Of a stretch of 64,000 nt of DNA, positions 39,063 through 56,553 are shown piece by piece. The stretch comes from Coriobacteriia bacterium. Its GTDB lineage: Bacteria; Actinomycetota; Coriobacteriia; Coriobacteriales; RUG033. Location: the NCBI GenBank assembly GCA_015655215.1, contig JAATFL010000002.1:813-64812 (forward strand), written 5' to 3'. The notes under the pieces are model-generated. The model saw only the letters and a program-made list of their open reading frames with translations. It did not search any database and was not told the origin of the DNA. The position numbers and the translations under genes are program-made. Position 1 is the first letter of the stretch, and the number at the start of each line of letters is the position of its first letter.

Positions 39063-40151
39063 TCAGCCACCACCCTTCACATAGCCGGTGTTCCGTCCAG
39101 CGCCCACCTTCGTGAGACATCCCGACCTCACCAGTTCGCACAAGGTGGCCTCCACGGTGGCGATGCTGATGTCGGGGCAGGCGACGAGGATGTCCCTCTT
39201 CGTGAGCTTGCCCAGGTTCTTGTCGAACATGAGCCGTACGCGATCCGCTTTCGTGAGTTCCTTTTCCCGTAGGACGTCGAGGTTATCGAGCACGGCGAGA
39301 TAGCTGGAGAGCACGGTATCGAGGAAGTACTCGACGAAGGGAAGGTAGCTGTTGCGGTTTCGCTCCCAGCCCACCGCGCAGCCGTTGAGGGTCGCGTAGT
39401 AGGTCTCGGCGGTTGCCTCGATCGTCTTCTCGATGCTTGCGTACCTTCCGATATCGATACCCTCGCGATACAGGAGCAGCGTGGTGAGGAGTCTGCCCAC
39501 GCGTCCGTTCCCCGCGCTGAAGGGATGTATGCAGAGAAGGTCGACGAGGAAGACCGGAATGAGCACGAGGGGATGATGCGAATGCGTCTCCAGTTCGTTG
39601 ACGAGGGTGTCGCAGGCCGCTCCCAGGGCGAGGGGGGTTTCAAACGCGGTGATGGGGCTCACGGCGACCTGTTGCACCTTGCCGTCGATGTTGGTGAATT
39701 GCGTGTCCTTCTTGCGGTAATCCCCGGCTCCGGCGAGGTCGGTGTGGGCATAGAGGCCCTGATGCACCCGCAGCACCGTGCTGGGCGCCGGTGGTATATG
39801 GGCATACCCCTCGGTGAGGGCGTCGAGGACCTCGGCGTACCCCACCAGTTCCTGCTCACTCTGGTCCTTGGGAGCCAATCGCGCCGGTGCCATCTTCCCG
39901 TGGCCCGATGGGGATCGACCTGTGAGCAGGTCATCGACCCGGTGCGTATCGATGTAGATGCCCTCGATGTGTGCAGAGGAATCGACGCTGGCGATGCGGG
40001 CGGAGGGGATGAGCGGGTCGAGGACGTCGGGGCTCGTCTTGCGGATGGTGTCAAGGCTTCCCTTGCATTCGTGGATCTTGGTGATGGTATCCAAGATCTT
40101 GGGAGCCGAGAGTTCGGCGGGAAGCCGGGCGTAGTTGAATGTCTTCACCAT
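39063..40151 (-). CDS. Fic-domain protein with N-terminal inhibitory motif and C-terminal winged HTH
   Basis: HPFSAGNGRVGR Fic loop, SAHIEG inhibitory (S/T)xxxE(G/N) motif, C-terminal ISIATVEATLCELVRSGCLTKVGAGRNTGY. Confidence 0.9.
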   Translation of the reverse strand: MVKTFNYARLPAELSAPKILDTITKIHECKGSLDTIRKTSPDVLDPLIPSARIASVDSSAHIEGIYIDTHRVDDLLTGRSPSGHGKMAPARLAPKDQSEQELVGYAEVLDALTEGYAHIPPAPSTVLRVHQGLYAHTDLAGAGDYRKKDTQFTNIDGKVQQVAVSPITAFETPLALGAACDTLVNELETHSHHPLVLIPVFLVDLLCIHPFSAGNGRVGRLLTTLLLYREGIDIGRYASIEKTIEATAETYYATLNGCAVGWERNRNSYLPFVEYFLDTVLSSYLAVLDNLDVLREKELTKADRVRLMFDKNLGKLTKRDILVACPDISIATVEATLCELVRSGCLTKVGAGRNTGYVKGGG

Positions 40152-40159
40152 AGGCCTTT

Positions 40160-40260
40160 CTACCCAATATTCACCATACTGCCCAATATATCATCAAATT
40201 AGGCAGATAATACGAAGATATTCTCTTTTCTGAATCGCGTTGACTTCCTTTCTGCCCAAT
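40160..40260. repeat. Four copies of a 9-bp motif CTRCCYAAT in the fic/aor divergent promoter
   Basis: CTACCCAAT 40160, CTGCCCAAT 40179, inverted ATTAGGCAG 40198, CTGCCCAAT 40252. The first three are 19 bp apart. Confidence 0.7.
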
Positions 40261-40346
40261 GTCCTCTACACTTTCACATCGACGATACCCGGGCTGACGT
40301 CTGCACTGAGTGCGTGTCCACGAGGTCGGAGAGAGAGGAAGACTCT

Positions 40347-40817
40347 ATGACAGGACAGCTGGTCATCGACCCGAAGCGGTGTGTGGCGTGTCGCACATGC
40401 GAGCTCATGTGCTCGTTCGGGCATCACGATTACTTCAACCCGCGACTTGCTTGCGTGAGTGTCTTCAACTACGAGTATGCCGCCGTCACGGTACCCGTCA
40501 TGTGCCTGCAATGTGACGAGGCGAGTTGTGCGGCCGTATGCCCTACGGGAGCCCTCAGCCGCAATGCCGATGGTGTGGTCGTGCATGAAGACGCCAAGTG
40601 CATCGTCTGCAAGATGTGCGTGAGTGCGTGCCCTCTGGGCAACATCGCATACTCTCCCATCACCAAGAACGTCTTCAAGTGCGACCTGTGCGGCGGTGAG
40701 CCGAAGTGCGCGCTGTTCTGCCCAACCGGTGCCATCACCTTCGTCGAGAGCGACGAGGTGCTTGCGAAGAAGCGGGCTGTGGCCGATAACTTCAAAAAGA
40801 CCCTTGAGGAGGCATAG
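40347..40817 (+). CDS. 4x[4Fe-4S] polyferredoxin subunit of AOR (AorA/WorS-like)
   Basis: CVACRTCELMC, CLQCDEASCAAVCP, CIVCKMCVSACP, KCDLC...CALFCP. Confidence 0.92.
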   Translation: MTGQLVIDPKRCVACRTCELMCSFGHHDYFNPRLACVSVFNYEYAAVTVPVMCLQCDEASCAAVCPTGALSRNADGVVVHEDAKCIVCKMCVSACPLGNIAYSPITKNVFKCDLCGGEPKCALFCPTGAITFVESDEVLAKKRAVADNFKKTLEEA

Positions 40818-40818
40818 C

Positions 40819-42627
40819 ATGGCTGTCGGAAACGCATGGATCGGAACGGTCCTCCGCGTCGATCTCACCACGGGAACGTGGGGCACCGAGCCGCTCCGCA
40901 TGAAGGATGCGAACGATTTCGTAGGTGCCCGTGGACTGGGGACCAAGTACTTCTGCGATGAGTGCGATCCCAACGTCGAGCCGCTCTCCGTCGAGAACAA
41001 GCTCATCTACATGACCGGCCCCCTCACGGGCACGGCCGCCACTTCAGCCGGCCGTTTCGAGGTCGTCGCCAAGGCGCCGCTCACCGGTACCATCGGTGCT
41101 GCCAACTCGGGCGGGCACTTCGGTCCCGAGCTCAAGTTCGCCGGCTACGACGGCATCATCTTTGAGGGTGGCGCCGACCACCCCGTCTATCTCTACATCA
41201 ACGACGATCGGATCGAACTGCGCGACGCCACCCACCTGTGGGGCAAGGATGTCCACAAGACCACCGATATGCTGATCGAGGAGTGCGGCAACGTCCGCGT
41301 CTCCTGCATCGGCCCCACCGGGGAGCGTGGCTGCCTCTTCAGCGCCATCATGAACGAGAAGAACCGCGCCGCCGGTCGTGGTGGTCTCGGCGCGGTCATG
41401 GGCGTCAAGAACCTCAAGGCCGTCGTCGTACGAGGCACCGGTCCGGTCAAGGTCGCTCGTCCCGAGGGCTTCCTGCGCGAGCTGACGAAGGCCCGTGCGA
41501 TCATCCAGGCGCACCCGGTCACCGGTACGGGCATGGCGGCCTACGGAACCCAGATCCTGATGAACATCCTCAACGAGGTGGGGGCCCTGCCCCTGTGCAA
41601 CGGGCGTGGCGGCTCCATCTTCGACCACGCTGATGAGATCAGCGGGGAGAAGTTGTCCGAGACCTATCTTGTCAAGAACCAAGGCTGCTTTGGTTGCTCG
41701 ATCGCCTGCGGCCGTGTCACGAGGATCCCGGACGATTCCCCCTACGCTGGATTTGGCGAGGGCCCTGAGTACGAGGCGGGCTGGTCGTTTGGGGCTGACT
41801 GCCAGGTGGACGACCTCGCCGCCGTATGCAAGGCGAACTTCATATGCAACGAGTACGGCATGGACCCGATCACCCTGGGTGCCACCATAGCCTGCGCGAT
41901 GGAACTCTCCGAGATGGGTGCCATTCCCGAATCCGACATCGGCTTCCCCCTGCGCTTTGGCGATAGCGACGCCGTGGTGAGGCTCACGAAGATGTGTGCC
42001 GAGGGCGAGGGGTTTGGCAAGTTGCTCGAGCTGGGTTCGTACCGGATGGCCGAGCACTACGGTCATGCCGAGCTTTCCATGAGCGTCAAGAAACAGGAGA
42101 TGCCCGCCTACGACGCGCGTGCCATCCAAGGTATCGCCCTCGAGTACGCCACCTCCAACCGCGGTGGCTGTCACGTGCGCGGCTACATGATCGCCCCTGA
42201 GGTTCTCGGTCTGCCGATCAAGACCGACCCGTTGGTCACCGAGGGAAAGGGCAGCCTGCTCAAGACGTTCCAGGACCTCACCGCGTTGTGCGACTCCGTG
42301 GGCATCTGCCTGTTCACCACCTTTGGGATGGGATTGCCCGAGATCGCCGGTCAGTACCGTGAGGCCGTGGGCAGCGACGAGTCCGACGAGGACATCCTGC
42401 TCAAGGGCGAGCGCATCTGGAACCTCGAGAAGCGCTTCAACATGGCTGCCGGTGTGGAGAAGGACACGCTTCCCCCACGGTTGCTGCGCGAGGCGCTGCC
42501 CAGTGGCCCAGCCAAGGGCAAGGTGGCCGAGTTGCAGACCATGCTCGCCGACTATTACGAGGTGCGTGGCTGGACCTCTGAGGGCGAGCCAACCGACGAG
42601 AAGCTCGAGCAGCTCAGCCTGGGTTGA
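40819..42627 (+). CDS. aor: Aldehyde:ferredoxin oxidoreductase, AOR family (probably tungsten-dependent)
   Basis: ANSGGHFGPELKFAGYDGII, RAAGRGGLGAVMGVKNLKAV, CFGCSIACGR, GEGPEYE, YDARA...YATSNRGGCH, DSVGICLF. Confidence 0.95.
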   Translation: MAVGNAWIGTVLRVDLTTGTWGTEPLRMKDANDFVGARGLGTKYFCDECDPNVEPLSVENKLIYMTGPLTGTAATSAGRFEVVAKAPLTGTIGAANSGGHFGPELKFAGYDGIIFEGGADHPVYLYINDDRIELRDATHLWGKDVHKTTDMLIEECGNVRVSCIGPTGERGCLFSAIMNEKNRAAGRGGLGAVMGVKNLKAVVVRGTGPVKVARPEGFLRELTKARAIIQAHPVTGTGMAAYGTQILMNILNEVGALPLCNGRGGSIFDHADEISGEKLSETYLVKNQGCFGCSIACGRVTRIPDDSPYAGFGEGPEYEAGWSFGADCQVDDLAAVCKANFICNEYGMDPITLGATIACAMELSEMGAIPESDIGFPLRFGDSDAVVRLTKMCAEGEGFGKLLELGSYRMAEHYGHAELSMSVKKQEMPAYDARAIQGIALEYATSNRGGCHVRGYMIAPEVLGLPIKTDPLVTEGKGSLLKTFQDLTALCDSVGICLFTTFGMGLPEIAGQYREAVGSDESDEDILLKGERIWNLEKRFNMAAGVEKDTLPPRLLREALPSGPAKGKVAELQTMLADYYEVRGWTSEGEPTDEKLEQLSLG

Positions 42628-42745
42628 CGGTTTGTCGATTCGCCCCCTGTCCTCGCGCAGAGATGGGGGGTGACACGCTCGCCGACGAGTCCCGTCTCTC
42701 GTGCGATGGACCGTATGCCTACCTGCCGTTTGGTAAGGAGCATCC

Positions 42746-43018
42746 ATGAAGGTCAAGTTCTTTGCGACGTATCGGCAAATCGCCAACTGCAAGGACTTCG
42801 AGATCGAGGCTCCTGCCGATGTGCTGGGACTACTCAAGGTTCTCTGCCGAAGGTGGCCGGAATTCTCCAACAAGATAGTGGCGCCCGACGGCGAGAGCCT
42901 TGGGGCCGATGCGATCGTGCTCGTGAACGGGCGTCACATACAGCATCTGGACGGGGTGAGGACCTCGCTTGCCAACGGCGATACCGTGACGCTGCTGCCG
43001 TTGGTCGCCGGTGGGTGA
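42746..43018 (+). CDS. moaD: MoaD/ThiS-family ubiquitin-like sulfur carrier
   Basis: MKVKFFATYR start, VLVNGRHI, C-terminal LVAGG di-glycine. Confidence 0.9.
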   Translation: MKVKFFATYRQIANCKDFEIEAPADVLGLLKVLCRRWPEFSNKIVAPDGESLGADAIVLVNGRHIQHLDGVRTSLANGDTVTLLPLVAGG

Positions 43019-43087
43019 CGCGGCACTCTCTTCAGGGCTCTGCGGACGATGGAAGAAAGACTTGTCGGTAACGGGAGAGGATGTGAT

Positions 43088-43561
43088 ATGGTCTCAAACG
43101 AGGAGGTATCGTCTATCATCGACGCATACCCCAGGGATCGGCGGTATGCGCTGGCCGTCATGCAGGATATGCAGCGTACCTTCAACTACGTGCCCGAGAA
43201 CGGGCTCATCGCCACGGCCGAGCACCTGGACTGCTCGGTCGCACAGCTCTATTCGATGGCAACGTTCTACAAGGCGCTTTCGCTCAAGCCGAAGGGCAAG
43301 CACATCATCAAGGTCTGCGACGGGACCGCATGCCATCTGCGTGGTGCGAACAACCTGGTGACGGGGGTCAAGCGAGAACTCGGCATCGTTCCAGGCGAGG
43401 TGACGGCCGATGGCGAGTTCTCGTTGGAACTCGTGAACTGCCTTGGCTCCTGCGCGCTTGCACCTGTGCTGGTCATCGATGGCGTGTACCACAACAAGGT
43501 CAAGATCGATGCCATACCTTCGATCCTCAAAGAGCACGCGACCCCGGTGGTGACGCAATGA
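43088..43561 (+). CDS. NuoE/HydC-like [2Fe-2S] subunit
   Basis: ATFY, KVCDGTACHLRG, VNCLGSCALAPV. Confidence 0.93.
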   Translation: MVSNEEVSSIIDAYPRDRRYALAVMQDMQRTFNYVPENGLIATAEHLDCSVAQLYSMATFYKALSLKPKGKHIIKVCDGTACHLRGANNLVTGVKRELGIVPGEVTADGEFSLELVNCLGSCALAPVLVIDGVYHNKVKIDAIPSILKEHATPVVTQ

Positions 43562-45363
43562 CCCCGACACCCGACATGACCAAGATACTGGTGTGCTGCG
43601 GTACCGGATGCATCGCGAACGGTAGTCTCAAGGTCGCTCGCGCCATCCGTGATGAGATCGTGGCACAAGGTGTTGCGGCGACGCTCGACCTGCTGGTCGA
43701 GGAGACCGGATGCAGCGGTATGTGCGAAGGTGGTCCCATCGTGCGCATCCTGCCCGCCGACATCATGTACTACAAGGTGAGGGAGCGCGGCGCCAAGGAC
43801 ATCGTGGCCTCCTTGGGAGGGGACCCCCTCAAGCGCCTACTGTTCAAAGACGCACGGGGTGAGCGGGTCACCGCCCAAAGCGAGAACCCCTTCTACGCGG
43901 CTCAAGTGAAGATCGCCTTGCGCAACGTGGGTCTCATCGATCCCCTCAGCATCGACGAGTACGTCGCACGTGGTGGATACGAGGGTCTCAAGCGCGCCCT
44001 TGCGATGACCCCGGACGAGATCATCACCGAGGTGGAGAGATCCGGCGTCCGTGGCAAAGGCGGGGCAGGGTTTCCCACGGGACGCAAATGGCGTACGGCT
44101 GCCGGCTATGACAATTATCCGAAGTACATCGTCTGCAACGGAGACGAGGGCGACCCCGGTGCCTTCATGGACGGCTCCACCCTCGAGGGTGACCCCCATG
44201 GCGTCATCGAGGGCATGGTCATCGGCGCCCTCGCCATCCAGGCCGAGGAGGGGGTCTTCTACATCCGCGACGAGTACGCACTGGCCCGCGATCACGTGCA
44301 GAGGGCCATCGAGGCTGCCGAGAGGGCAGGCATCCTGGGTGATGACATCTTGGGAAGCGGCAAGAGGATGAAGCTCTCCATCGTCCGCGGTGGCGGTGCG
44401 TTCGTGTGCGGCGAGTCGACCGCTCTCATGGCGAGCATCGAGGGGCGGGTGGGAGAACCTCGGGCCAAGTACATCCGCAGTGCCGAGCGGGGACTCTTCA
44501 ACCAGCCCACGGTCCTCAACAACGTCGAAACGCTCGCCACCATCCCCTACATCCTCAAGGAGGGTGCCGATGCGTTCGCCAGCGTGGGTACCGAGACCAG
44601 CAAGGGCACCAAGGTCTTCGCCATGGTGGGCAAGGTCAAGCATACGGGACTCGTCGAGGTCCCCATGGGCACGACCCTCCGCACGCTCATCTATGACATC
44701 GGCGGAGGTATCATCGACGACCGGCCCTTCAAGGCCGTCCAGACCGGTGGGCCTTCAGGTGGGTGCATCCCGGATTCCCTGCTTGACCTGCCCGTCGACT
44801 TCGACACGCTCAAGAAATATGGCGCGATGATGGGTTCGGGCGGCATGATCGTGATGGACGATTACAACTGCATGGTCGAGGTCGCCCGCTATTATGTGAA
44901 CTTCCTGTGCGAGGAGAGCTGCGGCAAGTGCACTCCGTGTCGGGAGGGTCTGCGTCAGATGCATGCCATCCTCACCGACATCTGCGAGGGGCGCGGTGAG
45001 CAGGGCGACGTCGAGCTTTTGGAGCGCATCGGCGCGACGATGCAGGATGCCTCGCTGTGCGCTCTGGGAAAATCGGCGGCCAACCCGGTCCTCTCGACCA
45101 TCAAGTACTTCCGCAACGAGTACGAGGCCCATATCGACGAGCGTCGTTGCCCGGCGGGCGTGTGCGTCAAGCTCACGGAGTTCACGATCGACCCCGAGGC
45201 GTGCACCGGATGCGGGGCCTGCCTGCGGGCGTGTCCGACGGAGGCCATATCGGGAGCGGTGAAGGAGACGCATGTGATCGATAGTGAGAAGTGCATCGTG
45301 TGCGGAAGCTGCCGCGAGGTCTGTCGATTCAACGCCGTGGTGACCGAGGGGAGGCGGGCATGA
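43558..45363 (+). CDS. NuoF/HydB-like FMN/Fe-S subunit of an electron-bifurcating (Bfu/Hyt-type) module
   Basis: N-terminal CCGTGC...GCSGMC, RGKGGAGFPTG, NGDEGDPGAFMD, GGGAFVCGES, GTKVF, QTGGPSGG, ESCGKCTPCREG, HIDERRCPAGVC, C-terminal 2x[4Fe-4S]. Confidence 0.93.
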   Translation: MTPTPDMTKILVCCGTGCIANGSLKVARAIRDEIVAQGVAATLDLLVEETGCSGMCEGGPIVRILPADIMYYKVRERGAKDIVASLGGDPLKRLLFKDARGERVTAQSENPFYAAQVKIALRNVGLIDPLSIDEYVARGGYEGLKRALAMTPDEIITEVERSGVRGKGGAGFPTGRKWRTAAGYDNYPKYIVCNGDEGDPGAFMDGSTLEGDPHGVIEGMVIGALAIQAEEGVFYIRDEYALARDHVQRAIEAAERAGILGDDILGSGKRMKLSIVRGGGAFVCGESTALMASIEGRVGEPRAKYIRSAERGLFNQPTVLNNVETLATIPYILKEGADAFASVGTETSKGTKVFAMVGKVKHTGLVEVPMGTTLRTLIYDIGGGIIDDRPFKAVQTGGPSGGCIPDSLLDLPVDFDTLKKYGAMMGSGGMIVMDDYNCMVEVARYYVNFLCEESCGKCTPCREGLRQMHAILTDICEGRGEQGDVELLERIGATMQDASLCALGKSAANPVLSTIKYFRNEYEAHIDERRCPAGVCVKLTEFTIDPEACTGCGACLRACPTEAISGAVKETHVIDSEKCIVCGSCREVCRFNAVVTEGRRA

Positions 45364-46124
45364 GCACAGCGAAGACGCTCTCCCTCACCATCGACGGCAC
45401 GCCGTGCACCTGCGAGTCTGGTGAGTACCTGTACGATGTGGCGAAGCGCAACGGGATCCTCATCCCGGTGCTCTGCCGCTCCGATGCGTTCGAGGACCAT
45501 CGGGCCTGCTGTCGCGTATGCATCGTCGAGGTCGAGATCAAGGGGCGTCGCAAGGTCGTCACCGCCTGCGTCTATCCCGTCGAGCAGGAATGCGCCGTGT
45601 ACACCAACTCGGAGAAGATCGTCGAGGAACGCGCGATCGTCCTTGCGCTGTTGGCGAAACGCGCCCCCGAGAGTGCGGAGATCGTCGCGATGGCCAGGTA
45701 CTACAAGGCACCCGAGCTCGATCGCCTCGTCGAGCTCGATGGGGGGAGGTGCATCCTGTGCGGTCGGTGCGTCCAAGCGTGCGAGAGCCTGGGGACCGGA
45801 GCCATATCCACCATCAACCGCGGGACGGAGAAGGAGGTCAGCACCCCGTACCACAACCCATCGCTTGCCTGCGTCGGCTGTCTGAGCTGCGCAAACGTAT
45901 GTCCCACGGGGGCTATCCCCTTTATCCAGGCACCATCGACGCGTTCCATCTGGGGGCGCGACTTCGAGGTGCTCTCTTGCGAGAGGTGCGGTGCGCCCAT
46001 GGGCACGCGCGAGGAGATCGCCTATGCGGCCAAGAAGGCGGGGATGGAGACGCCCGTCATCTGCGATGCATGCCGCAAGCACGAGATCGCGGATTCGATG
46101 ATGGGCACGTATCGCCTGGTCTGA
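45360..46124 (+). CDS. Short NuoG-N/HytD-like Fe-S subunit without catalytic domain
   Basis: [2Fe-2S] LC...ACCRVC...TAC, CILCGRCVQAC, CVGCLSCANVCP, C-terminal CERC...CDAC. Confidence 0.88.
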   Translation: MSTAKTLSLTIDGTPCTCESGEYLYDVAKRNGILIPVLCRSDAFEDHRACCRVCIVEVEIKGRRKVVTACVYPVEQECAVYTNSEKIVEERAIVLALLAKRAPESAEIVAMARYYKAPELDRLVELDGGRCILCGRCVQACESLGTGAISTINRGTEKEVSTPYHNPSLACVGCLSCANVCPTGAIPFIQAPSTRSIWGRDFEVLSCERCGAPMGTREEIAYAAKKAGMETPVICDACRKHEIADSMMGTYRLV

Positions 46125-46186
46125 TCGCATGGTCTTCCGTACGGTAGATGCCTGAAGGGCTGTCGGACATACGACATGGGGTGAAC

Positions 46187-46876
46187 ATGCGCTTTGCGAA
46201 GCGATATGCACGCAACAGCACGGCGATCTCCCCCGAGGAGGTCGTCGTGCTGACCCGCAAGAGGGTCGTGGTGGTTGGATGCGGGGGCCTCGGTGGCTAT
46301 TGCATCGAGATGTTGGCGCGCGTGGGCGTGGGGCATCTCATCGTCGTGGACCCCGACGTCTTCGACGGGACGAACCTCAACCGGCAGATCCTCTGCACCG
46401 AGGACGCCATCGGCCGATCCAAGGTCGAGATGGCATGCGCGCGCGTCGCCGCCGTCAACGCGGAGGTGCAGGTCGAGGGGGTACGGGATGTTCTCGACGA
46501 GGGCAATGCAGCTTCCATCATCGCCGGGGCCGACTGCGTCGTCGACGCCCTCGATTCCGCGGACGCACGACTCGTGCTCGCCCATGCGTGTGCACGAGTC
46601 GGCGTGTGCATGGTCCACGGCGCCATCGCGGGGTGGTTCGGTCAGGTGATAACCATCTTCCCCGATGACGTGGCAGCTGATATCCTGTTCTCGAATGGTT
46701 CGAAGGGTGCCGAGGGGGAACTGGGGAATCCAGCATTCACGCCCGCCTGCATCGCCTCGTTTCAAGTTGCCGAGACCATCAAGGTGCTTCTTGGCAGGTC
46801 CGGCGCCCTGCGGGGCAAGATGCTCTCGATAGACATGCTCGCGGGCTCGATGGAGACGCTTGAACTGCGTTCGTGA
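46187..46876 (+). CDS. ThiF/MoeB-family adenylyltransferase (E1-like)
   Basis: RYARN, VVVVGCGGLG, DPDVFDGTNLNRQ, GRSK, VDALD. Confidence 0.92.
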   Translation: MRFAKRYARNSTAISPEEVVVLTRKRVVVVGCGGLGGYCIEMLARVGVGHLIVVDPDVFDGTNLNRQILCTEDAIGRSKVEMACARVAAVNAEVQVEGVRDVLDEGNAASIIAGADCVVDALDSADARLVLAHACARVGVCMVHGAIAGWFGQVITIFPDDVAADILFSNGSKGAEGELGNPAFTPACIASFQVAETIKVLLGRSGALRGKMLSIDMLAGSMETLELRS

Positions 46877-47008
46877 CCGACACCGTGCCCGTTACCAAGG
46901 ATTCCACATCGGCAGGGGCGATGCCCGTGCATGTTGGTGCCGATGGGGCGGGAAGACAGCATCGTGGATGTGTACGACTGCCGTTTCGACGTGAAGGAGG
47001 CGTTTCAT

Positions 47009-48835
47009 TTGGCAAGGTTGCATGTGATCGAGAGAAGCGAGGCCCAGAGGATCGTCGAGGATCTCCACGAAGCCCTCGGGCGGCGTATGGCCGTCAGTTC
47101 GCTCGCCCCCTGTCCGGTGGAGTTCACCGCGGCCTTCGTGGGAATGTGCATGACCCAGTCGTGCGGCAAGTGCACGCCGTGCCGCGTGGGCCTCTCACAG
47201 CTCAAGACCCTGATGGACGACGTGCTCGACGGGGTCGCGACGCAGGGAACGCTCAAGCTCATCGACAGGACCGCCCTCTACATCTACCTCTCGGCCGACT
47301 GCGCCATAGGCTACGAGGCGGCAGGTATGGCGCTCGAGGCCATCAGCGGTTTCAGGGACGACTTCGAGTACCACGTGGCGCACGGCTGCTGCGACTTCCA
47401 CCAAAGCGAGCTCACACCCTGCGTCTCCGGCTGCCCGGCCGGCGTGGACATCCCCGGTTACATCGCGCTCGTCGAGGCCGGACGCTTCACGGATGCGGTG
47501 CGTCTCATCCACAAGGACAACCCGCTTCCGGTGGCGTGCGGGCTCATCTGCGAGCATCCCTGCGAGATCAACTGCCGCCGTGGCATGGTGGACGACCCGC
47601 TCAACATCCGCGGGATCAAGCGCTACGCGACCGACCACATGGAGGACTACACCCCCAGCAAGGCGGCGCCCACGGGCAAGCGCGTCGCGATCGTCGGCGG
47701 GGGCCCCGCGGGTCTCTCGGCCGCGTACTACCTGGCTCTCATGGGCCATGCTCCCACCATCTTCGAACAGCGCAGCCATCTGGGCGGCATGATGCGCTAC
47801 GGCATCCCAAGCTACCGTCTGCCACGTGGGCGCTTCGACGAGGAGATCGCGTGGATCCTCGACCAGGGCGTCGAGGTCGAGTACGACGTGAGCGTGGGAA
47901 GGGACGTCCCGATAGGGGATCTGCGTCGCGACTACGACGCGGTCTACGTCGCCATCGGCGCGCATGCCGACCGCAAGGTGGGTCTGCCGGGCGAGGATGC
48001 CGAGGGCGTCATCTCGGCCGTGCACATGCTTCGCGAGATCGGTGACGGCAACGTGCCGGACTTCACGGGCCAGAGCATCGCCGTCATCGGCGGCGGCAAC
48101 GTCGCGATGGACGTCTCGCGATCCGCGGTACGGGCCGGTGCCGACAGGGTCATGATCGTCTATCGCAGGCGCGTGACGGACATGACGGCGCAGGACGAGG
48201 AGATCGCCGGTGCCGTCGCCGAGGAATGCGAGCTCCTCGACATGCACGCGCCCATCGGCATCGAGGTCGAAGACGGAAAGGTGAGCGGGTTGCGCGTCCA
48301 ACCGCAGATCATCGGTCCCGTCGTGGGGGGAAGGCCCAGGCCTCGTGATGGGGCACGGGAGAGCTTCGTGATCCCCTGTGACAAGGTGCTCGTCGCCGTC
48401 GGGCAGACGATCGACTCGGCTCCCTTCGCCGACTACGGCCTACCCACGAAGCGCGGTGCGATCAGCGCCGCAAGCGACGGCGAAGTCGAGGGATTCGACG
48501 GTCTCTTCTCCGGAGGGGACTGCGTGAGCGGACCGGCGACGGTCATCCGCGCCATCGCCGCCGGCAAGGTCGCCGCGCGCAACATCGACAAGTATCTCGG
48601 GTTCGACCACGAGATCGTGCTCGACGTGGACATCCCAGCGGTGCGCTTCAAGGGCAAGCTCTCGTGCGCCCGTTCCAACATGGCCGAGCGCGATGCCCAT
48701 GCGCGCAAGGAGGACTTCGAGCTCATGGAGCGCGGGCTCACCACCGAGGAGGCCTTGCAGGAGGCTTCGCGCTGCCTGCGCTGCGACCACTTCGGATTCG
48801 GTGCGTTTCGCGGGGGGAGGGTCAGCAAATGGTAG
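47009..48835 (+). CDS. GltD-like NAD(P)H-binding flavoprotein with N-terminal NuoF-type [4Fe-4S] domain (hydrogenase partner)
   Basis: TTG 47009 after AAGGAGG. QSCGKCTPCRVG, PCVSGCP...CGLICEHPCEINCRR, IVGGGPAG, VIGGGNVAMD...VYRR, EASRCLRCD. Confidence 0.9.
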   Translation: MARLHVIERSEAQRIVEDLHEALGRRMAVSSLAPCPVEFTAAFVGMCMTQSCGKCTPCRVGLSQLKTLMDDVLDGVATQGTLKLIDRTALYIYLSADCAIGYEAAGMALEAISGFRDDFEYHVAHGCCDFHQSELTPCVSGCPAGVDIPGYIALVEAGRFTDAVRLIHKDNPLPVACGLICEHPCEINCRRGMVDDPLNIRGIKRYATDHMEDYTPSKAAPTGKRVAIVGGGPAGLSAAYYLALMGHAPTIFEQRSHLGGMMRYGIPSYRLPRGRFDEEIAWILDQGVEVEYDVSVGRDVPIGDLRRDYDAVYVAIGAHADRKVGLPGEDAEGVISAVHMLREIGDGNVPDFTGQSIAVIGGGNVAMDVSRSAVRAGADRVMIVYRRRVTDMTAQDEEIAGAVAEECELLDMHAPIGIEVEDGKVSGLRVQPQIIGPVVGGRPRPRDGARESFVIPCDKVLVAVGQTIDSAPFADYGLPTKRGAISAASDGEVEGFDGLFSGGDCVSGPATVIRAIAAGKVAARNIDKYLGFDHEIVLDVDIPAVRFKGKLSCARSNMAERDAHARKEDFELMERGLTTEEALQEASRCLRCDHFGFGAFRGGRVSKW

Positions 48836-50559
48836 ATCTCACGATCGATGGTCGAAAGGTGCAGGTCCCGGAGCATACGACCATACTCGATGCGGCGAGG
48901 ACCGTCGGCATCGCCATCCCCACCCTCTGTTATCTCGCGGGCATCAACGACATAGGTGCCTGCCGCGTGTGCGTGGTCGAGGTCGAGGGTGTCGACCAGC
49001 TCGTCGCCTCGTGCAACAACGAGGTGGCCTCGGGCATGGCCGTCCTCACCAACAGCCCCAAGGTGCGCAGCGCCCGCCGCACCAACGTGGAGCTGCTCCT
49101 CTCCCAGCACGACGTCGAGTGCACCACCTGCGTGCGCAGCGGAAACTGCTCCCTGCAGACCGTCTCGAACGACCTCGGCCTCACCAAGGTCCCGTACCGC
49201 AAGGATCTCGTCACGGCCTCGTGGAACGAGGACTTCCCGCTCGTTCGCGATGCGAACAAGTGCATCAAGTGCCTCCGCTGCATCCAGGTGTGCGAGAAGG
49301 TGCAGGCGACGGGCGTATGGGATATCACGAATCGCGCGAGTCGGGCCAACGTGGGCGTCGTGGGTGGCATCCCCATCGAACAGTCGGATTGCGCGCTGTG
49401 CGGCCAGTGCATCACGCACTGTCCCGTGGGGGCGCTCACCGAGCGCGATGACACCGACAGGGCGTTCGAGGCGCTGGCCGACCCGGACAGGATCTGCGTG
49501 GTGCAGATCGCCCCGGCCGTGCGCGCCGCCTGGGGTGAGAGCCTGGGACTCTCCCGCGAGCAGGCAACGGCGAAGCGGCTCGTCAGCGCATTGCGCAGGA
49601 TGGGATTCGACTACATCTTCGACACGACCTTCTCCGCCGACCTCACCATCATGGAAGAGGGCAGCGAGTTCGTCGAACGCCTCGGCCATCGCGACACCGA
49701 GACGTTCCCGATGTTCACCTCGTGCTGCCCGGGCTGGGTGCGATTCGCCAAGGCGCACTACCCTGACATGGTGGACCAGCTCTCGACGGCCAAGTCGCCA
49801 CAGCAGATGTTCGGCGCCATCGCGAAGAGCTACTACGCCGAGCTCATCGGCGTCGACCCACACAGGATATTCTCCATCTCGATCATGCCCTGCGTCGCGA
49901 AGAAGCACGAGTGCGCGCTCGAGAACATGGACGATGCGGGGGGTGGCCAGGACGTCGACCTCTCCCTCACCACGCGCGAGGTCGATCGCATGATCCGTGC
50001 GGAGCACATCGATCCCGCCCTTCTCGAGGAGGAGGAGTTCGACGCCCCGCTTGGCACCGGCACCGGTGCGGCCGTCATCTTCGGCGCGACGGGCGGTGTC
50101 ATGGAGGCGGCGCTGCGCAGCGCCTACTTCCTCGTCACAGGCACGAACCCGAGCCCGGATGCGTTCGAGGAGGTCCGCGGCCCCAGGGGATGGAAGGAGA
50201 TCACCTTCCATCTCGGCGAGACCCCGCTGCGCGTGGCGGTCGCAAGCGGTCTGGGCAACGCGAAGCACCTCATGGACGCCCTCGCGTCCGGTGAGGTCAC
50301 CTACGATTTCGTCGAGATCATGGCATGCCCAGGCGGTTGCTCGGGTGGCGGCGGCCAGCCCATCCTCGACGGCAGCGAGCTCGCCGGCGAGCGCGGCCGG
50401 GTGCTCTACGGTCTCGATGAGGCCGATGTCCTGCGCTTCTCTCATGAGAACCCCTCGGTGATCGCCTGCTATGAGAACTACCTCGGTGCACCCCTCTCCG
50501 AGAAGGCCCACCACCTTCTCCATTCCGACCACCATGCCTGGAGCATGCCCCATGCATGA
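48829..50559 (+). CDS. hydA: [FeFe]-hydrogenase catalytic subunit, group A (A2-type by GltD-like neighbour)
   Basis: H-cluster motifs TSCCPGW, MPCVAKKHE and EIMACPGGCSGGGGQP are intact. N-terminal [2Fe-2S], His-ligated (HDVECTTC...NC) and 2x[4Fe-4S] clusters are present. Confidence 0.95.
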   Translation: MVDLTIDGRKVQVPEHTTILDAARTVGIAIPTLCYLAGINDIGACRVCVVEVEGVDQLVASCNNEVASGMAVLTNSPKVRSARRTNVELLLSQHDVECTTCVRSGNCSLQTVSNDLGLTKVPYRKDLVTASWNEDFPLVRDANKCIKCLRCIQVCEKVQATGVWDITNRASRANVGVVGGIPIEQSDCALCGQCITHCPVGALTERDDTDRAFEALADPDRICVVQIAPAVRAAWGESLGLSREQATAKRLVSALRRMGFDYIFDTTFSADLTIMEEGSEFVERLGHRDTETFPMFTSCCPGWVRFAKAHYPDMVDQLSTAKSPQQMFGAIAKSYYAELIGVDPHRIFSISIMPCVAKKHECALENMDDAGGGQDVDLSLTTREVDRMIRAEHIDPALLEEEEFDAPLGTGTGAAVIFGATGGVMEAALRSAYFLVTGTNPSPDAFEEVRGPRGWKEITFHLGETPLRVAVASGLGNAKHLMDALASGEVTYDFVEIMACPGGCSGGGGQPILDGSELAGERGRVLYGLDEADVLRFSHENPSVIACYENYLGAPLSEKAHHLLHSDHHAWSMPHA

Positions 50560-50656
50560 CAAAGACGCCCCTTGCCGGATGGCTTGCCTCGAGCGACAGG
50601 GAGGGATGGATTCCCTCGCACAGGCCGTCCGCGCCACGGGACGTGGAAAGGGCGCC

Positions 50657-51691
50657 GTGAGACGTCCGACGAGGGGCATGCATGCTGCGTCGCTCATGCT
50701 CGGGTGCATCCTTCTCGTCACGCTGCTGGCCCTCGTGGGCTGCTCGGGGCAGGCGGGGCAGTCGACGGGCGAATCCGACGCCGTCACCACCTCGACGGCC
50801 GTGCGCGTGGCGTCCCTCAAGGGTCCGACCTCGATCGGTCTCGTGGGGATGATGGACGCGGCGAATGCGGGTGAGCTTGCCAACGATTACACCTTCACGG
50901 TCTCCGGCACCGTCGATGAGATCCTGCCCGACATCATCCAGGGCAACGTCGACATCGCGCTGGTCCCCGCCAACGTCGCCGCCACGCTCTACCAGAAGAC
51001 GGACGGCGGCATCTCGGTCATCGACGTCAACACGCTCGGCGTGCTCTACGTCGTCTCTGGCGACGACTCGATCTCGTCGCTCGCCGACCTGGCGGGCAAG
51101 ACGGTGTACATGACCGGCAAGGGCACCACCCCCGAGTACGTGATGGACTATCTCCTGAGCGAGAGCGGTCTCGACGGCGAGGTGACGCTCGAGTTCAAGA
51201 GCGAGGCGTCCGAGGTCGCGGCGGCACTCGCAGCCGACCCATCGGCAATCGGGGTCCTCCCCGAGCCATACGTGACCTCGGTCGAGGCGCGCAACGCCGC
51301 CCTCAAGCCCGTCATCAGCCTCACCGACGAATGGAGCGAGTTGCAAGGCGGATCCGGCGGCCAGCTCGTGACCGGGGTGACCATCGTGCGAAACGACTAT
51401 CTCTCCGCGCATCCCGAGGCCGTCGCGGAGTTCCTCTCCGCCCATGCCGACTCCGTCGCGTACGTGAACGGCGACCCGTCCGAGGCGGCGTCGGGCGTCG
51501 TGGCAGCCGGGATCATCGACGACGAGACGGTCGCCGCCCAGGCGATTCCCCGGTGCAACGTCGTGTGCCTCACCGGCCAGGACATGGAGGATGCGCTCTC
51601 GGGTTACCTGGACGTGCTCTATCGGCAGGATCCCACGTCGGTCGGTGGCCAGCTGCCCGACTCCGCCTTCTACTATCTCGGCACATCGTAG
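50657..51691 (+). CDS. ABC transporter substrate-binding lipoprotein (NitT/TauT/SsuA-like)
   Basis: Lipobox LALVGC, VASLKGPTSIG, DIALVPAN, LAGKTV...GTTP, VLPEPYVT. Start 50657 (GTG) or 50678 (ATG). Confidence 0.88.
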   Translation: MRRPTRGMHAASLMLGCILLVTLLALVGCSGQAGQSTGESDAVTTSTAVRVASLKGPTSIGLVGMMDAANAGELANDYTFTVSGTVDEILPDIIQGNVDIALVPANVAATLYQKTDGGISVIDVNTLGVLYVVSGDDSISSLADLAGKTVYMTGKGTTPEYVMDYLLSESGLDGEVTLEFKSEASEVAAALAADPSAIGVLPEPYVTSVEARNAALKPVISLTDEWSELQGGSGGQLVTGVTIVRNDYLSAHPEAVAEFLSAHADSVAYVNGDPSEAASGVVAAGIIDDETVAAQAIPRCNVVCLTGQDMEDALSGYLDVLYRQDPTSVGGQLPDSAFYYLGTS

Positions 51692-51704
51692 GGCAGGGCG
51701 TGCG

Positions 51705-53231
51705 GTGACATCGCGACCGGGCGGGAAATGGCTGACACGACTGGGGGTCCTGGCGTTCTGGCTCGTGGTATGGCAGCTTGCCAGCCAGGTCGTCGGAAGC
51801 CAGATCCTCCTGGCAGGGCCGTGGGATACCCTCGAGGCCCTGTTCCGCGATGGCGTGACCATCGGGTTCTGGCAGGCGATATGGTTTTCCTTCCAGCGCA
51901 TCGTACTCGGGTTTCTCGGTGCCTTTTGCATAGGGGTGCTCCTGGCGATCCTGACCAGGCGCTTCGCGCTTCTCCGCACGCTGCTCGAACCGGCGGTCTC
52001 GTTCATCAAGAGCGTTCCGGTGGTGTGCATCATCGTCCTGCTGCTCATCCTGGTCGCCTCCCGCCAGGTGTCGGTCATCGCCGTCGTCCTCGTCGTGTTC
52101 CCCGCGGTGTACTTCTCGGCGTACCAGGGACTTCTGGGCATCGACCAGGGTATGGGGGAGATGCTGGGGGTCTTTGGCGTTTCCCCCGTACGTCGCATGG
52201 GCATGCTCTCCTGGCCCTCGATGCTGCCGTTCCTGCTCGCCACGAGCAAGGTGGTCGTCGGCATGGGTTGGAAGTCGGGCGTTGCCGCCGAGATCATCGG
52301 CATCCCACTCGGGTCGATCGGCGAGCGCCTGTACCTGTCGAAGATCACGCTCGAGACGGCCGAGCTGTTCTCGTGGACCTTGGTCATCGTGCTGGTGAGC
52401 ACGCTGTGCGAGAGGGTGTTCGTGGCGGCACTTGCACGCTCGGGCTCGTGGAGTCGTGCCCTTGCCATGCCCCGGTCGCGTGCGTCGAAAGGCGGGCGGG
52501 GGGACGCCGCGCGCGCAACGACCAAGGAGGAGGTCGCCACCAGGCCGGGTGCCCACATCGTTCTCGACGCGATCTCGAGGTCGTTTGACGGTCGAGAGGT
52601 GATCCAGGACTTCTCGTATGTGTTCCACCGTGGCGAGCGCTACTGTCTCAGCGGGGCATCCGGCATCGGGAAGACGACGCTCATTCGCATCATCGCGGGA
52701 TTGGACGTACCGGACGCGGGAAGCGTGAGGTTGTCGGCTGCGGTCGGTGACGGAGCCGATGGTGCTTCCGACCATGCGAGGAGACGACCACCGGTCGAGA
52801 CGAGCATGGTGTTCCAGGAGGCACGCCTCTTCGAGGACGAGGACGCCATCGACAACATCCGACTCGTCGTGGGCACGGCCATCGACCCCCAGGGTGCGAC
52901 CGCTCTCCTGAGCCAGCTGCTCCCCGTGAGCGCCCTGAGGTTACCGGCCGCACAGCTCTCAGGTGGCATGAGGCGCAGAGTCGAGCTCTGCCGTGCTCTC
53001 GCCATGCCGTCCCAGACGCTCATCCTCGATGAGCCGTTCGCCGGTCTTGACGATGCGAGCAAGGCGCGTGCCATCGCACTCATCGACACGTACCTTGGAG
53101 GGCGCACGCTCATCGTCGTGACCCATGATATCGAGGACGCCGCCGCGTTGGGTGCGACGGTGATCGACTGCGAAGGCGATGTTGGTTTTTGCCAGGCTGC
53201 TCGCCACGGTGCGGACGACGCTCAGCGGTAA
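51705..53231 (+). CDS. Fused ABC permease + ATPase (NitT/TauT-like)
   Basis: TM domain with WKSGVAAEIIG...SIG, then Walker A GASGIGKTT, VFQE, LSGGMRRR, ILDEPFAGLD and VVTHD, all in a single ORF. Confidence 0.88.
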   Translation: MTSRPGGKWLTRLGVLAFWLVVWQLASQVVGSQILLAGPWDTLEALFRDGVTIGFWQAIWFSFQRIVLGFLGAFCIGVLLAILTRRFALLRTLLEPAVSFIKSVPVVCIIVLLLILVASRQVSVIAVVLVVFPAVYFSAYQGLLGIDQGMGEMLGVFGVSPVRRMGMLSWPSMLPFLLATSKVVVGMGWKSGVAAEIIGIPLGSIGERLYLSKITLETAELFSWTLVIVLVSTLCERVFVAALARSGSWSRALAMPRSRASKGGRGDAARATTKEEVATRPGAHIVLDAISRSFDGREVIQDFSYVFHRGERYCLSGASGIGKTTLIRIIAGLDVPDAGSVRLSAAVGDGADGASDHARRRPPVETSMVFQEARLFEDEDAIDNIRLVVGTAIDPQGATALLSQLLPVSALRLPAAQLSGGMRRRVELCRALAMPSQTLILDEPFAGLDDASKARAIALIDTYLGGRTLIVVTHDIEDAAALGATVIDCEGDVGFCQAARHGADDAQR

Positions 53232-55171: not shown

Positions 55172-55320
55172 GGGACCATCCCTTTCTCTGACGGGAACGG
55201 CAAGCATCGCTCCAAGCGGTCGAACCTGCTGCAACCACATCGCTCGAACGCACGTCGTGCGGCATGGCTCTTGGCTCGCCGATGCCCATGGGACCATGGT
55301 ATCCCATCTCATGGGGCGAG

Positions 55321-56553
55321 CTATCGATAGAGGGTGACCACGATCTCCTCCCCGGCCGAGACGCCCTCCTGGTCGCGCGGGATGCAGAAGTACCCATCCG
55401 TGACGGTAAGCAGGGAGATGAGTCCTGACTTGACGTGCACGGGATATGCGGCGATCGAAGAGGAGACGGCCGCGGTCGACGGCCTCTCGAGGCGTACGGC
55501 GACGTACTCGGCGCGGCCATGGTTGGAGGGGACCGCCTCTTGGAGAATGGAGGTGACGTGATGCTCTACAACCGAGGTACCCAGCATCGATGCGATGAGC
55601 GGTCTCACGAAGAGCAGGAAGACGAAGTACGCTGCGATCGGATGCCCGGGAAGGCCGATGACGGGTATCCCGCTCGCATCGCCCACGATCGTCGGTTTTC
55701 CCGGCTTCATCGCGATGCCATGGAGCAACAACTCGGCATGCTTCCCGATGACGTCGAGCGAGTTGTCGCGTATCCCCACGGAGCTTCCTCCGGAGATGAG
55801 CACGAGTTGACAGTCACCAAGGGCTTCGACGACGACGGCATCAAGCTCGTCGGGATTATCTCGCACGATGCCCAGGCAACGCGGAGAGCCTCCGGCATCT
55901 CGCACTGCTGCGGCAAGAAGTGACGAGTTCACATCGCGCATCTGCCCAAGAAGGGGCTCTTGGGATGTGGGGACGATCTCGTCTCCACTGGATATGATGC
56001 CCACCCTCACGGGCTCGCGTACCATCACGGACTCGACTCCCAGCGCCGATAGGGCTCCGATGTGATGAGGGAGCAAGGTGGTGCCCGCACTCAGCACCGT
56101 GTGGCCGATGTGGACCTCGTCGCCTCGAAAGACGACGTTGTCGCCTGGTGCGACGGGTTTGAGAACGCCCACCGTCCCATCGCCATAGGCCTCGGTCTGC
56201 TCCACCATCACGACGGCATCTGCTCCGGGTGGAAGTGCACCCCCCGTGGGGATGGCAAGGCACTCGCCAACGCCGCATGGTCGAGAGGGCATCGTGCCCA
56301 TCGCGACGGTATCCACGCAGCGTTCAAGTGCCGGGATGCTCTCGGAGCACCCGAAGGTATCCCTCGCCTGCAGTGCATAGCCATCCACGGTCGATCGGTC
56401 GAACGAGGGGACGTCCTCTCCTGCGACGATATCCTCGGCAAGCACCAGGTGCAGGGCGAGGGGAAGGGTGGAACGAGTCGTTGGGGTGCGAAGGCCATCG
56501 AACCGGGTGTCGATGACGCCGGTGGCTTCGTCGGTTGTCATGACATGCAGCAT
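55321..56553 (-). CDS. moeA: Molybdopterin metal insertase MoeA (gephyrin-like)
   Basis: PSFDRSTVDGYA, TGGALPPGADAVVMVE, ISSGDE, SGGSSVG, MKPGKPT, GLPGHP. Confidence 0.93.
   Translation of the reverse strand: MLHVMTTDEATGVIDTRFDGLRTPTTRSTLPLALHLVLAEDIVAGEDVPSFDRSTVDGYALQARDTFGCSESIPALERCVDTVAMGTMPSRPCGVGECLAIPTGGALPPGADAVVMVEQTEAYGDGTVGVLKPVAPGDNVVFRGDEVHIGHTVLSAGTTLLPHHIGALSALGVESVMVREPVRVGIISSGDEIVPTSQEPLLGQMRDVNSSLLAAAVRDAGGSPRCLGIVRDNPDELDAVVVEALGDCQLVLISGGSSVGIRDNSLDVIGKHAELLLHGIAMKPGKPTIVGDASGIPVIGLPGHPIAAYFVFLLFVRPLIASMLGTSVVEHHVTSILQEAVPSNHGRAEYVAVRLERPSTAAVSSSIAAYPVHVKSGLISLLTVTDGYFCIPRDQEGVSAGEEIVVTLYR

Follow-up and report, generated by a model that had tools for sequence, protein, structure and literature searches.

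A bifurcating tungsten oxidoreductase cluster beside a GltD-linked [FeFe]-hydrogenase in a Coriobacteriia genome: probably two independent enzyme systems brought together

We analyzed a 64,000-nucleotide (nt) stretch of contig JAATFL010000002.1 from an environmental Coriobacteriia bacterium (the window, within which all coordinates are given), where nine co-oriented genes on the + strand span 40347-50559. An initial annotation had read this whole run as one candidate aldehyde/H2-coupling system, composed of an aldehyde:ferredoxin oxidoreductase (AOR), an electron-bifurcation (Bfu) module and a group A2 [FeFe]-hydrogenase. Our analysis indicates instead that the run is probably two independent enzyme systems brought together in this lineage, namely a bifurcating tungsten oxidoreductase (WOR) encoded by genes 1-7 and a GltD-like flavoprotein/HydA hydrogenase pair encoded by genes 8-9, and that a dedicated aldehyde-to-hydrogen machine is unlikely. 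The genes of the run and those flanking it are listed below, with lengths in amino acids (aa) and with matches to Pfam and NCBIfam families or to chains of solved structures in brackets.

39063..40151, - strand: Fic/DOC-domain protein, divergent from WorS (Pfam Fic 7.7e-12)
40347..40817, + strand: WorS polyferredoxin, 156 aa, with four [4Fe-4S] motifs and a probable C-terminal helix (Pfam Fer4 families; 9mqx_E 1e-36)
40819..42627, + strand: WorL, tungstopterin aldehyde:ferredoxin oxidoreductase large subunit, 602 aa (AFOR_N 1.7e-78, AFOR_C 2.1e-138; 9mqx_D 2.8e-234)
42746..43018, + strand: WorX, MoaD/ThiS-like sulfur-carrier protein, a pterin cofactor accessory, 90 aa (Pfam ThiS 1.8e-11; TIGR01687 moaD_arch 65.9 against a cut-off of 49.5)
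43088 (or 43049)..43561, + strand: WorC (BfuC), NuoE-like [2Fe-2S] subunit (2Fe-2S_thioredx 1.5e-44; 9mqx_C 3.1e-37)
43558..45363, + strand: WorB (BfuB), NuoF-like FMN/NAD subunit, 601 aa (Pfam; 9mqx_B 2.2e-217, next HydB 8a6t_B)
45360..46124, + strand: WorA (BfuA without the catalytic domain), 254 aa, with two C-terminal Cys pairs and a helix (Fer2_4, Fer4; 9mqx_A 9.7e-44)
46148..46876, + strand: ThiF/MoeB-like adenylyltransferase, a Wor-cluster accessory (Pfam ThiF 6.9e-51)
46877..47008, no strand: Wor/hydrogenase junction, 132 nt, shortened to 66 nt by a GltD-like start at 46943 (bridged by record 12 of X2)
47009 (or 46943)..48835, + strand: GltD-like NAD(P)H flavoprotein (PF10589, PF14691, PF07992; NF009410 577 against a cut-off of 516)
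48829..50559, + strand: HydA, group A [FeFe]-hydrogenase catalytic subunit, 576 aa, overlapping the GltD-like gene by 7 nt (Fe_hyd_lg_C, PF02906, 3e-90)
50471..51691, + strand: NMT1/SsuA-like substrate-binding lipoprotein of an ATP-binding cassette (ABC) transporter, start uncertain (NMT1 4.4e-09; TIGR01728 below its cut-off)
51591..53231, + strand: ABC permease-ATPase fusion closing the block, start uncertain (Pfam BPD_transp_1, ABC_tran)
53222..55312, - strand: MoeA fused to a PBP_like oxyanion-binding domain, for cofactor insertion (Pfam; NF011068 711 against a cut-off of 534)
55321..56553, - strand: second MoeA-like molybdopterin/tungstopterin metal-insertion gene (NCBIfam MoeA-type matches)

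The coordinates and the Pfam searches bore out the co-oriented nine-gene run and each of the domains predicted for it. Its genes are separated by gaps of 1 to 118 nt, the 118 nt gap lying between WorL and the MoaD/ThiS gene, or overlap by 4-7 nt, except at the step from ThiF to the GltD-like gene, which measures 66 nt with an ATG start at 46943 and 132 nt with a TTG start at 47009. Since the TTG codon has AAGGAGG just upstream and the alignment of most orthologues begins there, we prefer it as the start of the GltD-like gene; with this start, the ThiF/GltD-like gap is the largest of the run.

All five Wor structural subunits had as their top solved-structure match a chain of one entry, 9mqx (chains A-E), whose molecule names agree with the WorABCSL structure of Acetomicrobium mobile (PMC12318220). 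The match of WorL to 9mqx_D covered residues 7-601 and ranked above those to 8c0z_A and 1aor_A, WorA aligned with 9mqx_A over 7-245 with both CxxC pairs included, and WorS aligned with 9mqx_E over 4-149 of 152. Four Cys motifs are present in the WorS translation, and its C-terminal tail probably forms a helix, judging by the alignment to 9mqx_E. WorB consists of an N-terminal 2Fe-2S_thioredx piece, Complex1_51K, NADH_4Fe-4S, and two C-terminal Fer4 domains, such that the extra N-terminal [2Fe-2S] domain, the C-terminal 2x[4Fe-4S] domain, and the GAFM, TKVF and GGPSG motifs that had been ascribed to this protein are all there in the Pfam matches and the translation.

Class IV WOR is the name given to bifurcating enzymes of this kind in PMC13328260, which calls the ThiS-like gene worX, describes worX and thiF as accessories for pterin synthesis, and defines the operon types SLCBA (type 1) and CBASL (type 2), with type 1 assigned to Eubacterium limosum. 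The window carries a WorL in which the AFOR N-terminal domain (PF02730) is followed by domains 2 and 3 (PF01314), a four-motif WorS, and a Bfu trio with a catalytic-domain-less WorA, all in a single cluster in the order S-L-X-C-B-A, i.e. type 1. As assigned from the genes alone, 40347-46876 encodes a tungsten oxidoreductase of the bifurcating class IV, WorS-WorL-WorX-WorC-WorB-WorA, followed by ThiF, and hence an already characterized kind of enzyme in a further lineage. The A. mobile enzyme has been purified and solved by electron cryo-microscopy, and its description has three WorSL units building an Fe-S nanowire from which a single bifurcating WorABC core is fed, the C-terminal Zn-finger of WorA serving as the plug to the nanowire, and aldehyde oxidation tied to ferredoxin and NAD+ being reduced at the same time (PMC12318220). 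By homology, WorL would oxidize aldehydes to acids, and the electrons would travel along the [4Fe-4S] wire of WorS to WorA and on to the flavin/Fe-S core of WorBC, where NAD+ and ferredoxin would be reduced simultaneously; WorX, ThiF, and the two downstream MoeA proteins would serve pterin cofactor synthesis and metal insertion.

AmWOR1 (A. mobile, 9mqx) and ElWOR1 (E. limosum) have the same five subunit types and domain content as the window cluster, which has the SLCBA order of E. limosum, and they share with it a four-cluster WorS with a C-terminal helix and a WorA that lacks the catalytic domain and retains both Cys pairs. The host differs, since the accounts in PMC9304861 and PMC13328260 report the class from Synergistetes, Firmicutes, and Methanofollis, whereas the cluster described here belongs to an environmental Coriobacteriia.

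To place the cluster among its relatives, we searched for WorL in one genome per species, which yielded 533 relatives, and examined the best 80 loci (70-80% identity). By their record titles, 33 of the 80 are of Coriobacteriia type, with Slackia equolifaciens DSM 24851 and an Ellagibacter among them, and the remainder are mostly Firmicutes, including E. limosum and E. callanderi (72% WorL identity). Thus, of the combination that the initial annotation did not recall from Coriobacteriia, the Wor-Bfu cluster itself is common there. In tblastn searches with nine window proteins, the order S-L-X-C-B-A was seen wherever the contig permits. ThiF (45-56% identity) lies downstream of BfuA in the Coriobacteriia-type loci and upstream in many Firmicutes loci. 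In 29 of the 80 loci, mostly Coriobacteriia, the gene immediately upstream of WorS is a Fic homologue (33-40% identity), as it is at G367:C4, one of the genomes of the same order compared below; the divergent Fic/DOC gene may regulate or modify the Wor system. The fetched flanks of 23 of the loci hold a MoeA-PBP homologue (48-67% identity), a number that becomes 24/80 with a 27% match in L002, and G367:C4 has one as well; the second MoeA is syntenic in 20/80.

Elsewhere, the usual genes between the Wor operon and the MoeA-PBP gene are TupA/TupB/TupC-like genes and MoaA, whereas in this genome the slot is filled by the GltD-like gene, HydA, and the ABC transporter genes. TupA and TupB had no match in the assembly, which is 78.7% complete (L024 queries, E<=1e-5). 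A different neighbor was observed in G029:C18 (L084 9929-13403), where HdrC-like (Fer4_8), HdrB-like (CCG), and HdrA-like (661 aa) genes, another flavin/Fe-S redox module, follow Wor-Bfu-ThiF.

The GltD-like protein begins with a domain that had been missed in the earlier description, a NuoF-C-terminal [4Fe-4S] domain (PF10589, 1.7e-20), followed by a 2x[4Fe-4S] Fer4_20 domain (PF14691) and a FAD/NAD(P) domain (PF07992). Its residues up to ~150 correspond to the [4Fe-4S] domain at the C terminus of HydB/NuoF, while residues ~150-616 have as top solved matches the GltD modules of NfnA (9bov_A, 9n5u_A) and NfnL (5jca_L). With NfnL (5jca_L) and NfnA (9bov_A, 9n5u_A, 8oh5_C) it shares Fer4_20 and the FAD/NAD(P)H fold (8.4e-99 to 7.2e-69); in contrast to Nfn modules, it is a separate polypeptide with a NuoF-C-terminal domain in front, and it pairs with HydA or an FdhA-like protein rather than with NfnS or a Bfu core.

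HydA comprises a 2Fe-2S domain, a His-ligated 4Fe-4S domain, two 4Fe-4S domains, the H-domain, and a C-terminal small-subunit (SSU)-like domain. The H-cluster motifs TSCCPGW, MPCVAKKHE, and EIMACPGGCSGGGGQP are all present and are invariant across 16 aligned HydA sequences, and the gene is intact, as first described. The protein scored 477 against TIGR02512 (cut-off 406) and 759.9 against NF040763, 'NADH-dependent [FeFe] hydrogenase', just under the cut-off of 765. Its NuoG-like N-terminal domain set is part of an end-to-end alignment with HydA1 of bifurcating HydABC (8a6t_A, 2.8e-168), 7q4v_A being another of its best solved matches. HydABC (8a6t, 7q4v) has the same HydA Fe-S domain set and H-cluster motifs; it differs in that no HydB or HydC adjoins HydA here and the GltD-like neighbor retains only the C-terminal Fe-S domain of HydB/NuoF. 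In three relatives (G006, G009, G020), the HydA match is split in two within one frame of 647-772 aa, which suggests an insertion in the H-domain region.

Whether this pair is a group A2 hydrogenase depends on the rule applied. One preprint places in A2 those hydA genes that have a GltD/glutamate-synthase-type domain protein within two genes on either side, calls the class 'functionally uncharacterised', and reports it from 17% of gut bacterial species (preprint 10.64898/2026.06.24.733704). By this rule the A2 label given initially holds, as the H-cluster motifs of HydA, a group A catalytic subunit, are complete and a GltD-type protein lies within two genes of hydA (NF009410, PRK12771, 577 against 516; PRK12814 also matches). 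HydDB, as described in PMC5037454, asks for a protein immediately downstream of HydA that has a GltA/GltD domain and no NuoF domain. By that rule the label fails, in that the downstream gene encodes an NMT1/SsuA-like substrate-binding protein and the GltD-like gene lies upstream and carries PF10589. We therefore call the enzyme GltD-linked, or A2 in the neighbor sense only: it shares with A2 hydrogenases the group A HydA and a directly neighboring GltD-type NAD(P)-binding flavoprotein, and differs from A2 as HydDB defines it in the upstream position of the partner, in the NuoF-C-terminal Fe-S domain of that partner, and in travelling with an SsuA/NMT1-type ABC transporter.

The pair is conserved on its own. 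Across 41 genomes of the same order, this genome (G000) included, an adjacent GltD-like/HydA pair occurs in 20 (HydA 54-71% identical), with fragments in one more, and a metagenome scan with the GltD-like protein returned 51 loci (42-71% identity), in 48 of which HydA directly follows. A NuoF-like gene is absent from 13 of the 20 pair-bearing genomes, indicating that the pair needs no Bfu core. Since homologues of the substrate-binding protein and the permease-ATPase follow HydA in at least ten other genomes (G029, G007, G036, G023, G149, G144, G129, G164, G367, G190), the conserved unit is a four-gene block, GltD-HydA-SBP-ABC.

A complex prediction suggests how the two subunits might fit together. 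With the 608-aa GltD-like flavoprotein and HydA residues 1-215 each supplied as a 14-row alignment, the prediction scored 0.81 compared to 0.00 for the best of 3 controls, with the partner at a predicted local distance difference test (pLDDT) value >=86; the mark was reached by 58/80 solved complexes and 2/110 mismatched pairs, with between-run agreement stated no more closely than 'at least 0%'. In this prediction the interface lies between residues 48-102 of the GltD-like protein, in the NuoF-C-type domain and including CGKCTPC, and HydA residues 42-93, 122-126, and 147-173. The [4Fe-4S] domain of the flavoprotein may thus dock on the NuoG-like N-terminal Fe-S domain of HydA, an arrangement that would wire the FAD/NAD(P)H site to the H-cluster and make the pair a reversible NAD(P)H:H+ oxidoreductase.

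A second three-domain GltD-like flavoprotein (46% identical) is encoded on contig C24 of this genome (L102 3345-7920), directly preceding a 903-aa FdhA-like molybdopterin subunit that has a HydA-like N-terminal Fe-S domain set, and six relatives have a GltD-like match with an N-terminal-only HydA match in a similar arrangement. The flavoprotein may be an NAD(P)H module that docks on NuoG-type N-termini via its NuoF-C-type domain. An IS21-type transposase pair (rve and IstB) lies 1.4 kb upstream of the C24 flavoprotein/FdhA-like genes.

The hydrogenase and the Wor cluster were not found linked in relatives. HydA was detected at none of the 80 closest WorL loci at E<=1e-10, 48 of which continue for 2.5 kb or more past the last Wor gene, and the GltD-like matches at these loci were two weak ones (28-30%) on the minus strand. 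Conversely, none of the 51 metagenome GltD-HydA loci holds a Wor or Bfu gene (at least 2 kb of upstream sequence in 39, at least 7 kb in 29), nor do the 15 genome loci fetched around the pair hold Wor genes. A WorL orthologue occurs in 3 of the 41 genomes, with a contig-end fragment in a fourth. Among 401 genomes of the order sampled evenly for WorL orthologues, 18 have one, 9 of them with a HydA orthologue and 9 without. The two systems adjoin in this genome alone among 7 judgeable ones and lie apart in G001, G029, G129, G144, G149, and G367; G164 and G190 carry both systems, with contig ends that prevent an adjacency call. The only other species genome in the family, G001, has Wor on two contigs (C132, C195), where the 5 kb following ThiF hold unrelated genes, and the GltD-HydA pair on a further contig, C186, where the 8 kb upstream are likewise unrelated.

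The junction itself is real, as record 12 of X2, a 1485-nt contig from an independent study, covers 45793-47233 and bridges it, arguing against an assembly artefact. The X2 strain differs from the window by scattered substitutions across the Wor genes and by an in-frame 18-nt insertion in thiF (a 9-nt unit twice, at window position 46690); the arrangement is stable in this ~99% identical strain. X1 contains the whole stretch and is possibly the source of the window DNA. At 90% likeness, X1 and X3 also gave many small 'joints' and loose ends; these fall at conserved Fe-S motifs, and we read them as homologues from other organisms.

Signals of transcription gave little that separates or joins the two units. 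A scan of 39800-51200 found 2 terminator-like sites (4.0 expected) and 1 promoter-like site (2.1 expected), none of them in the ThiF/GltD-like gap, and the RNA fold of 46850-46960 was no better than that of shuffled sequences (z 0.29). Rex-operator-like patterns numbered 11 in the window compared to 18 expected, with none near 40152-40346 or 46877-47008. An RNA library, X3, holds near-identical contig pieces of WorL, WorX, WorA, ThiF, the 5' end of the GltD-like gene, and HydA; none of its contigs bridges 46876-47009, and the library may contain DNA. Stretches that lack cover in X3 or X4 carry no meaning, and the habitat hints from the runs with small word shares (X4-X10) were discounted.

The maturation genes expected of an [FeFe]-hydrogenase were sought as well. 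HydG and HydF family searches of this assembly gave no true match, the HydF model hitting GTPase domains only and below its cut-off, and tblastn with the HydG, HydE, and HydF proteins of relatives found none in this 78.7%-complete genome. HydG was found in 6 of the 41 genomes of the order. It was not found in 14 of the 20 pair-bearing genomes (this genome, G001, G006, G007, G009, G017, G020, G023, G026, G029, G031, G032, G036, and G038), among them the closed G009 and also G026 and G029, both estimated to be 100% complete. HydE and HydF were likewise not found in the four genomes tested for them (G001, G009, G026, G029), and a check by protein query returned nothing in G009, G026, and G029 and only radical-SAM relatives of 31-32% identity in G017 and G038. 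Maturase genes lie beside GltD-HydA in G003 alone among the 15, 51, and 80 loci examined. At that locus (G003:C1, L088 11768-12523), in a genome that has no WorL, a distant ThiF-family gene comes right after HydA, and the GltD-like gene has HydG and HydF a few kb upstream of it. In archaea and in some eukaryotes, [FeFe]-hydrogenases are reported to be active without maturases, and another pathway of maturation has been put forward (PMC11216029). Our full-text literature search found no published statement on maturase-less HydA in Coriobacteriia, which does not by itself show the observation to be unpublished.

Since the junction is confined to one species, each unit is conserved alone, half of the Wor-bearing genomes are without HydA, the gap between the units is the largest of the run, and no RNA contig bridges it, we consider two independent enzymes the likely explanation. 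The four-gene block, the pair with its SsuA/NMT1-type ABC transporter, sits in the Wor island at the slot that TupABC and MoaA occupy in other islands, and on this reading any coupling of aldehyde oxidation to H2 would pass by way of soluble pools of NAD(P)H or ferredoxin rather than a dedicated complex. We infer the enzyme activities, the specificity for NAD(P)H, the existence of a heterodimer, and the direction in which H2 is turned over. The proposal of a single aldehyde/H2-coupling system finds no support in these data and falls under two of the refuting conditions named with it, in that the pair adjoins AOR only in this genome (0/80, 0/51, 0/15, 1/7) and the AOR-Bfu arrangement is already characterized (PMC12318220, PMC9304861, PMC13328260). 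What stands is the identity of the parts, AOR and the Bfu trio being a known bifurcating WOR and HydA with its GltD-like neighbor an A2-type hydrogenase.

Several observations weigh against two independent systems. The units are co-oriented and 66-132 nt apart with no terminator-like site between them, so read-through transcription and co-regulation are possible, and the hydrogenase block sits between the Wor structural genes and the Wor-associated MoeA genes, a position that could reflect selection for linkage. WorB, the sole Complex1_51K match, is the only NuoF-type protein and HydA, the sole Fe_hyd_lg_C match, the only [FeFe] catalytic subunit in the assembly. The match of HydA to entries for Clostridium Iron hydrogenase 1, among them 4xdc_A (CpI), is weaker (~1e-129) than that to HydA1. 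The complex prediction may mirror likeness alone, since structures of HydABC and complex I have been solved. Finally, equol clusters of Eggerthellaceae contain 'nad_oxb' and 'hndD' alongside hydEGF and NAD(P)H-dependent reductases (PMC8898433); we take these two genes, likened by description and not by sequence, to be the same kind of pair as GltD-HydA, which would mean that the pair can be recruited to specific redox pathways.

One alternative is a coupling at the level of the operon, in which the block would be co-transcribed or co-regulated with Wor in the absence of a physical complex, and NADH, possibly along with reduced ferredoxin, produced by WorABCSL as it oxidizes aldehydes would be reoxidized by GltD-HydA to H2, giving a fermentative route from aldehyde to acid and H2 via soluble carriers. 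The shared strand, the short gap free of terminator-like sites and stable hairpins, the embedding of the block between Wor and MoeA genes, the persistence of the junction in the X2 strain, the X3 pieces of both units, and the single [FeFe] catalytic domain found in the assembly are all consistent with it. However, the junction is found in one species only, the RNA contigs stop short of spanning it in a library that can hold DNA, and the gap, the largest of the run, could hold a promoter. Moreover, the closest solved relatives of the GltD module bind NADPH, whereas Wor-Bfu reduces NAD+ (PMC12318220), and no HydG, HydE, or HydF was found in the incomplete genome. On balance we hold this coupling to be rather unlikely. 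Its fuller form, in which the GltD-HydA-ABC block was captured into the tungsten-enzyme island, is co-transcribed with it, and vents aldehyde reductant as H2 via an NAD(P)H-linked A2 hydrogenase, appears more doubtful still.

The physical arrangements fare worse. A supercomplex of the Hyt-Fdh type would put AOR in the place of formate dehydrogenase and dock HydA, together with the GltD-like protein, on the WorS/WorA wire, so as to run from aldehyde to H2 or from H2 to carboxylate reduction. Like FdhFeFe-Bfu of Clostridium autoethanogenum (FdhA/HytA-E), the window cluster does combine a pterin enzyme and an H-cluster subunit with a Bfu core whose BfuA/HytD has no catalytic domain; the resemblance of the C/B/D trio to HytCBD, pointed out initially, agrees with the placement of Wor-Bfu BfuB in clade 45 together with Hyt-type FdhFeFe-Bfu (PMC9304861), the Zn-finger and helix at the C terminus of WorA are also described in the Fdh-FeFe complex (PMC12318220), and all of the genes lie in one co-oriented run. 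In Hyt-Fdh, however, the hydrogenase subunit is conserved in the cluster and co-purifies, according to the published papers, whereas here it is linked to Wor in one species and has an NAD(P)H subunit of its own. The H-cluster subunit is not conserved in the pterin-enzyme/Bfu cluster (HydA in 0/80 WorL loci, Wor genes in 0/66 GltD-HydA loci, adjacency in 1/7 genomes), 9 of the order's 18 genomes with Wor lack a HydA orthologue, and the conserved partner of HydA is predicted to occupy its N-terminal Fe-S domain. H2-driven carboxylate reduction via NADH and ferredoxin would, in addition, be thermodynamically unfavorable (acid/aldehyde -560 mV, PMC9304861). We regard such a supercomplex as very improbable.

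We give even less credence to a shared bifurcating core, in which HydA would replace WorA on WorBC to form a HydABC-type hydrogenase. HydA does have HydA1 of bifurcating HydABC as its best solved matches (8a6t_A, 7q4v_A) and a near-cut-off score against the NADH-dependent family NF040763, and one Complex1_51K gene was found in the assembly. A single NuoF-type gene is nevertheless weak evidence since the genome is 78.7% complete, and orthologues of the pair work without a Bfu core, as the 13 of 20 pair-bearing genomes without a NuoF-like gene indicate. The GltD-like subunit, moreover, brings its own NuoF-C-terminal domain, which is predicted to bind the HydA N-terminal domain.

A single machine would have meant a new multi-enzyme system leading from aldehyde to H2; the evidence favors a known bifurcating tungsten enzyme beside a common hydrogenase of undefined function. 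The bifurcating WOR cluster is frequent in Coriobacteriia, named isolates included, where it forms part of a recurrent island with Fic-like, ThiF, TupABC, MoaA, and MoeA genes. The class to which the hydrogenase part belongs is widespread, defined by gene neighbors, and functionally uncharacterized, and the junction of this part with Wor is lineage-specific. For the A2-type hydrogenase of this order, our analysis gives a clear architecture, with a predicted docking of the NuoF-C-type domain on the HydA N-terminus and a flavoprotein module that also pairs with an FdhA-like protein. A motif-intact HydA with no HydG found, as in 14 of 20 genomes, is a puzzle already on record from archaea and certain eukaryotes, here extended to bacteria. 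If the captured block did vent aldehyde reductant as H2, a defined physiological pathway would for the first time be assigned to the A2 class as its partner, namely an 'aldehyde hydrogen-lyase' route that works via soluble carriers, and this in a genome in which HydEFG maturases were looked for and not found. This species offers a natural test case for an A2 hydrogenase that may dispose of reductant from a defined NAD+/ferredoxin-reducing enzyme.

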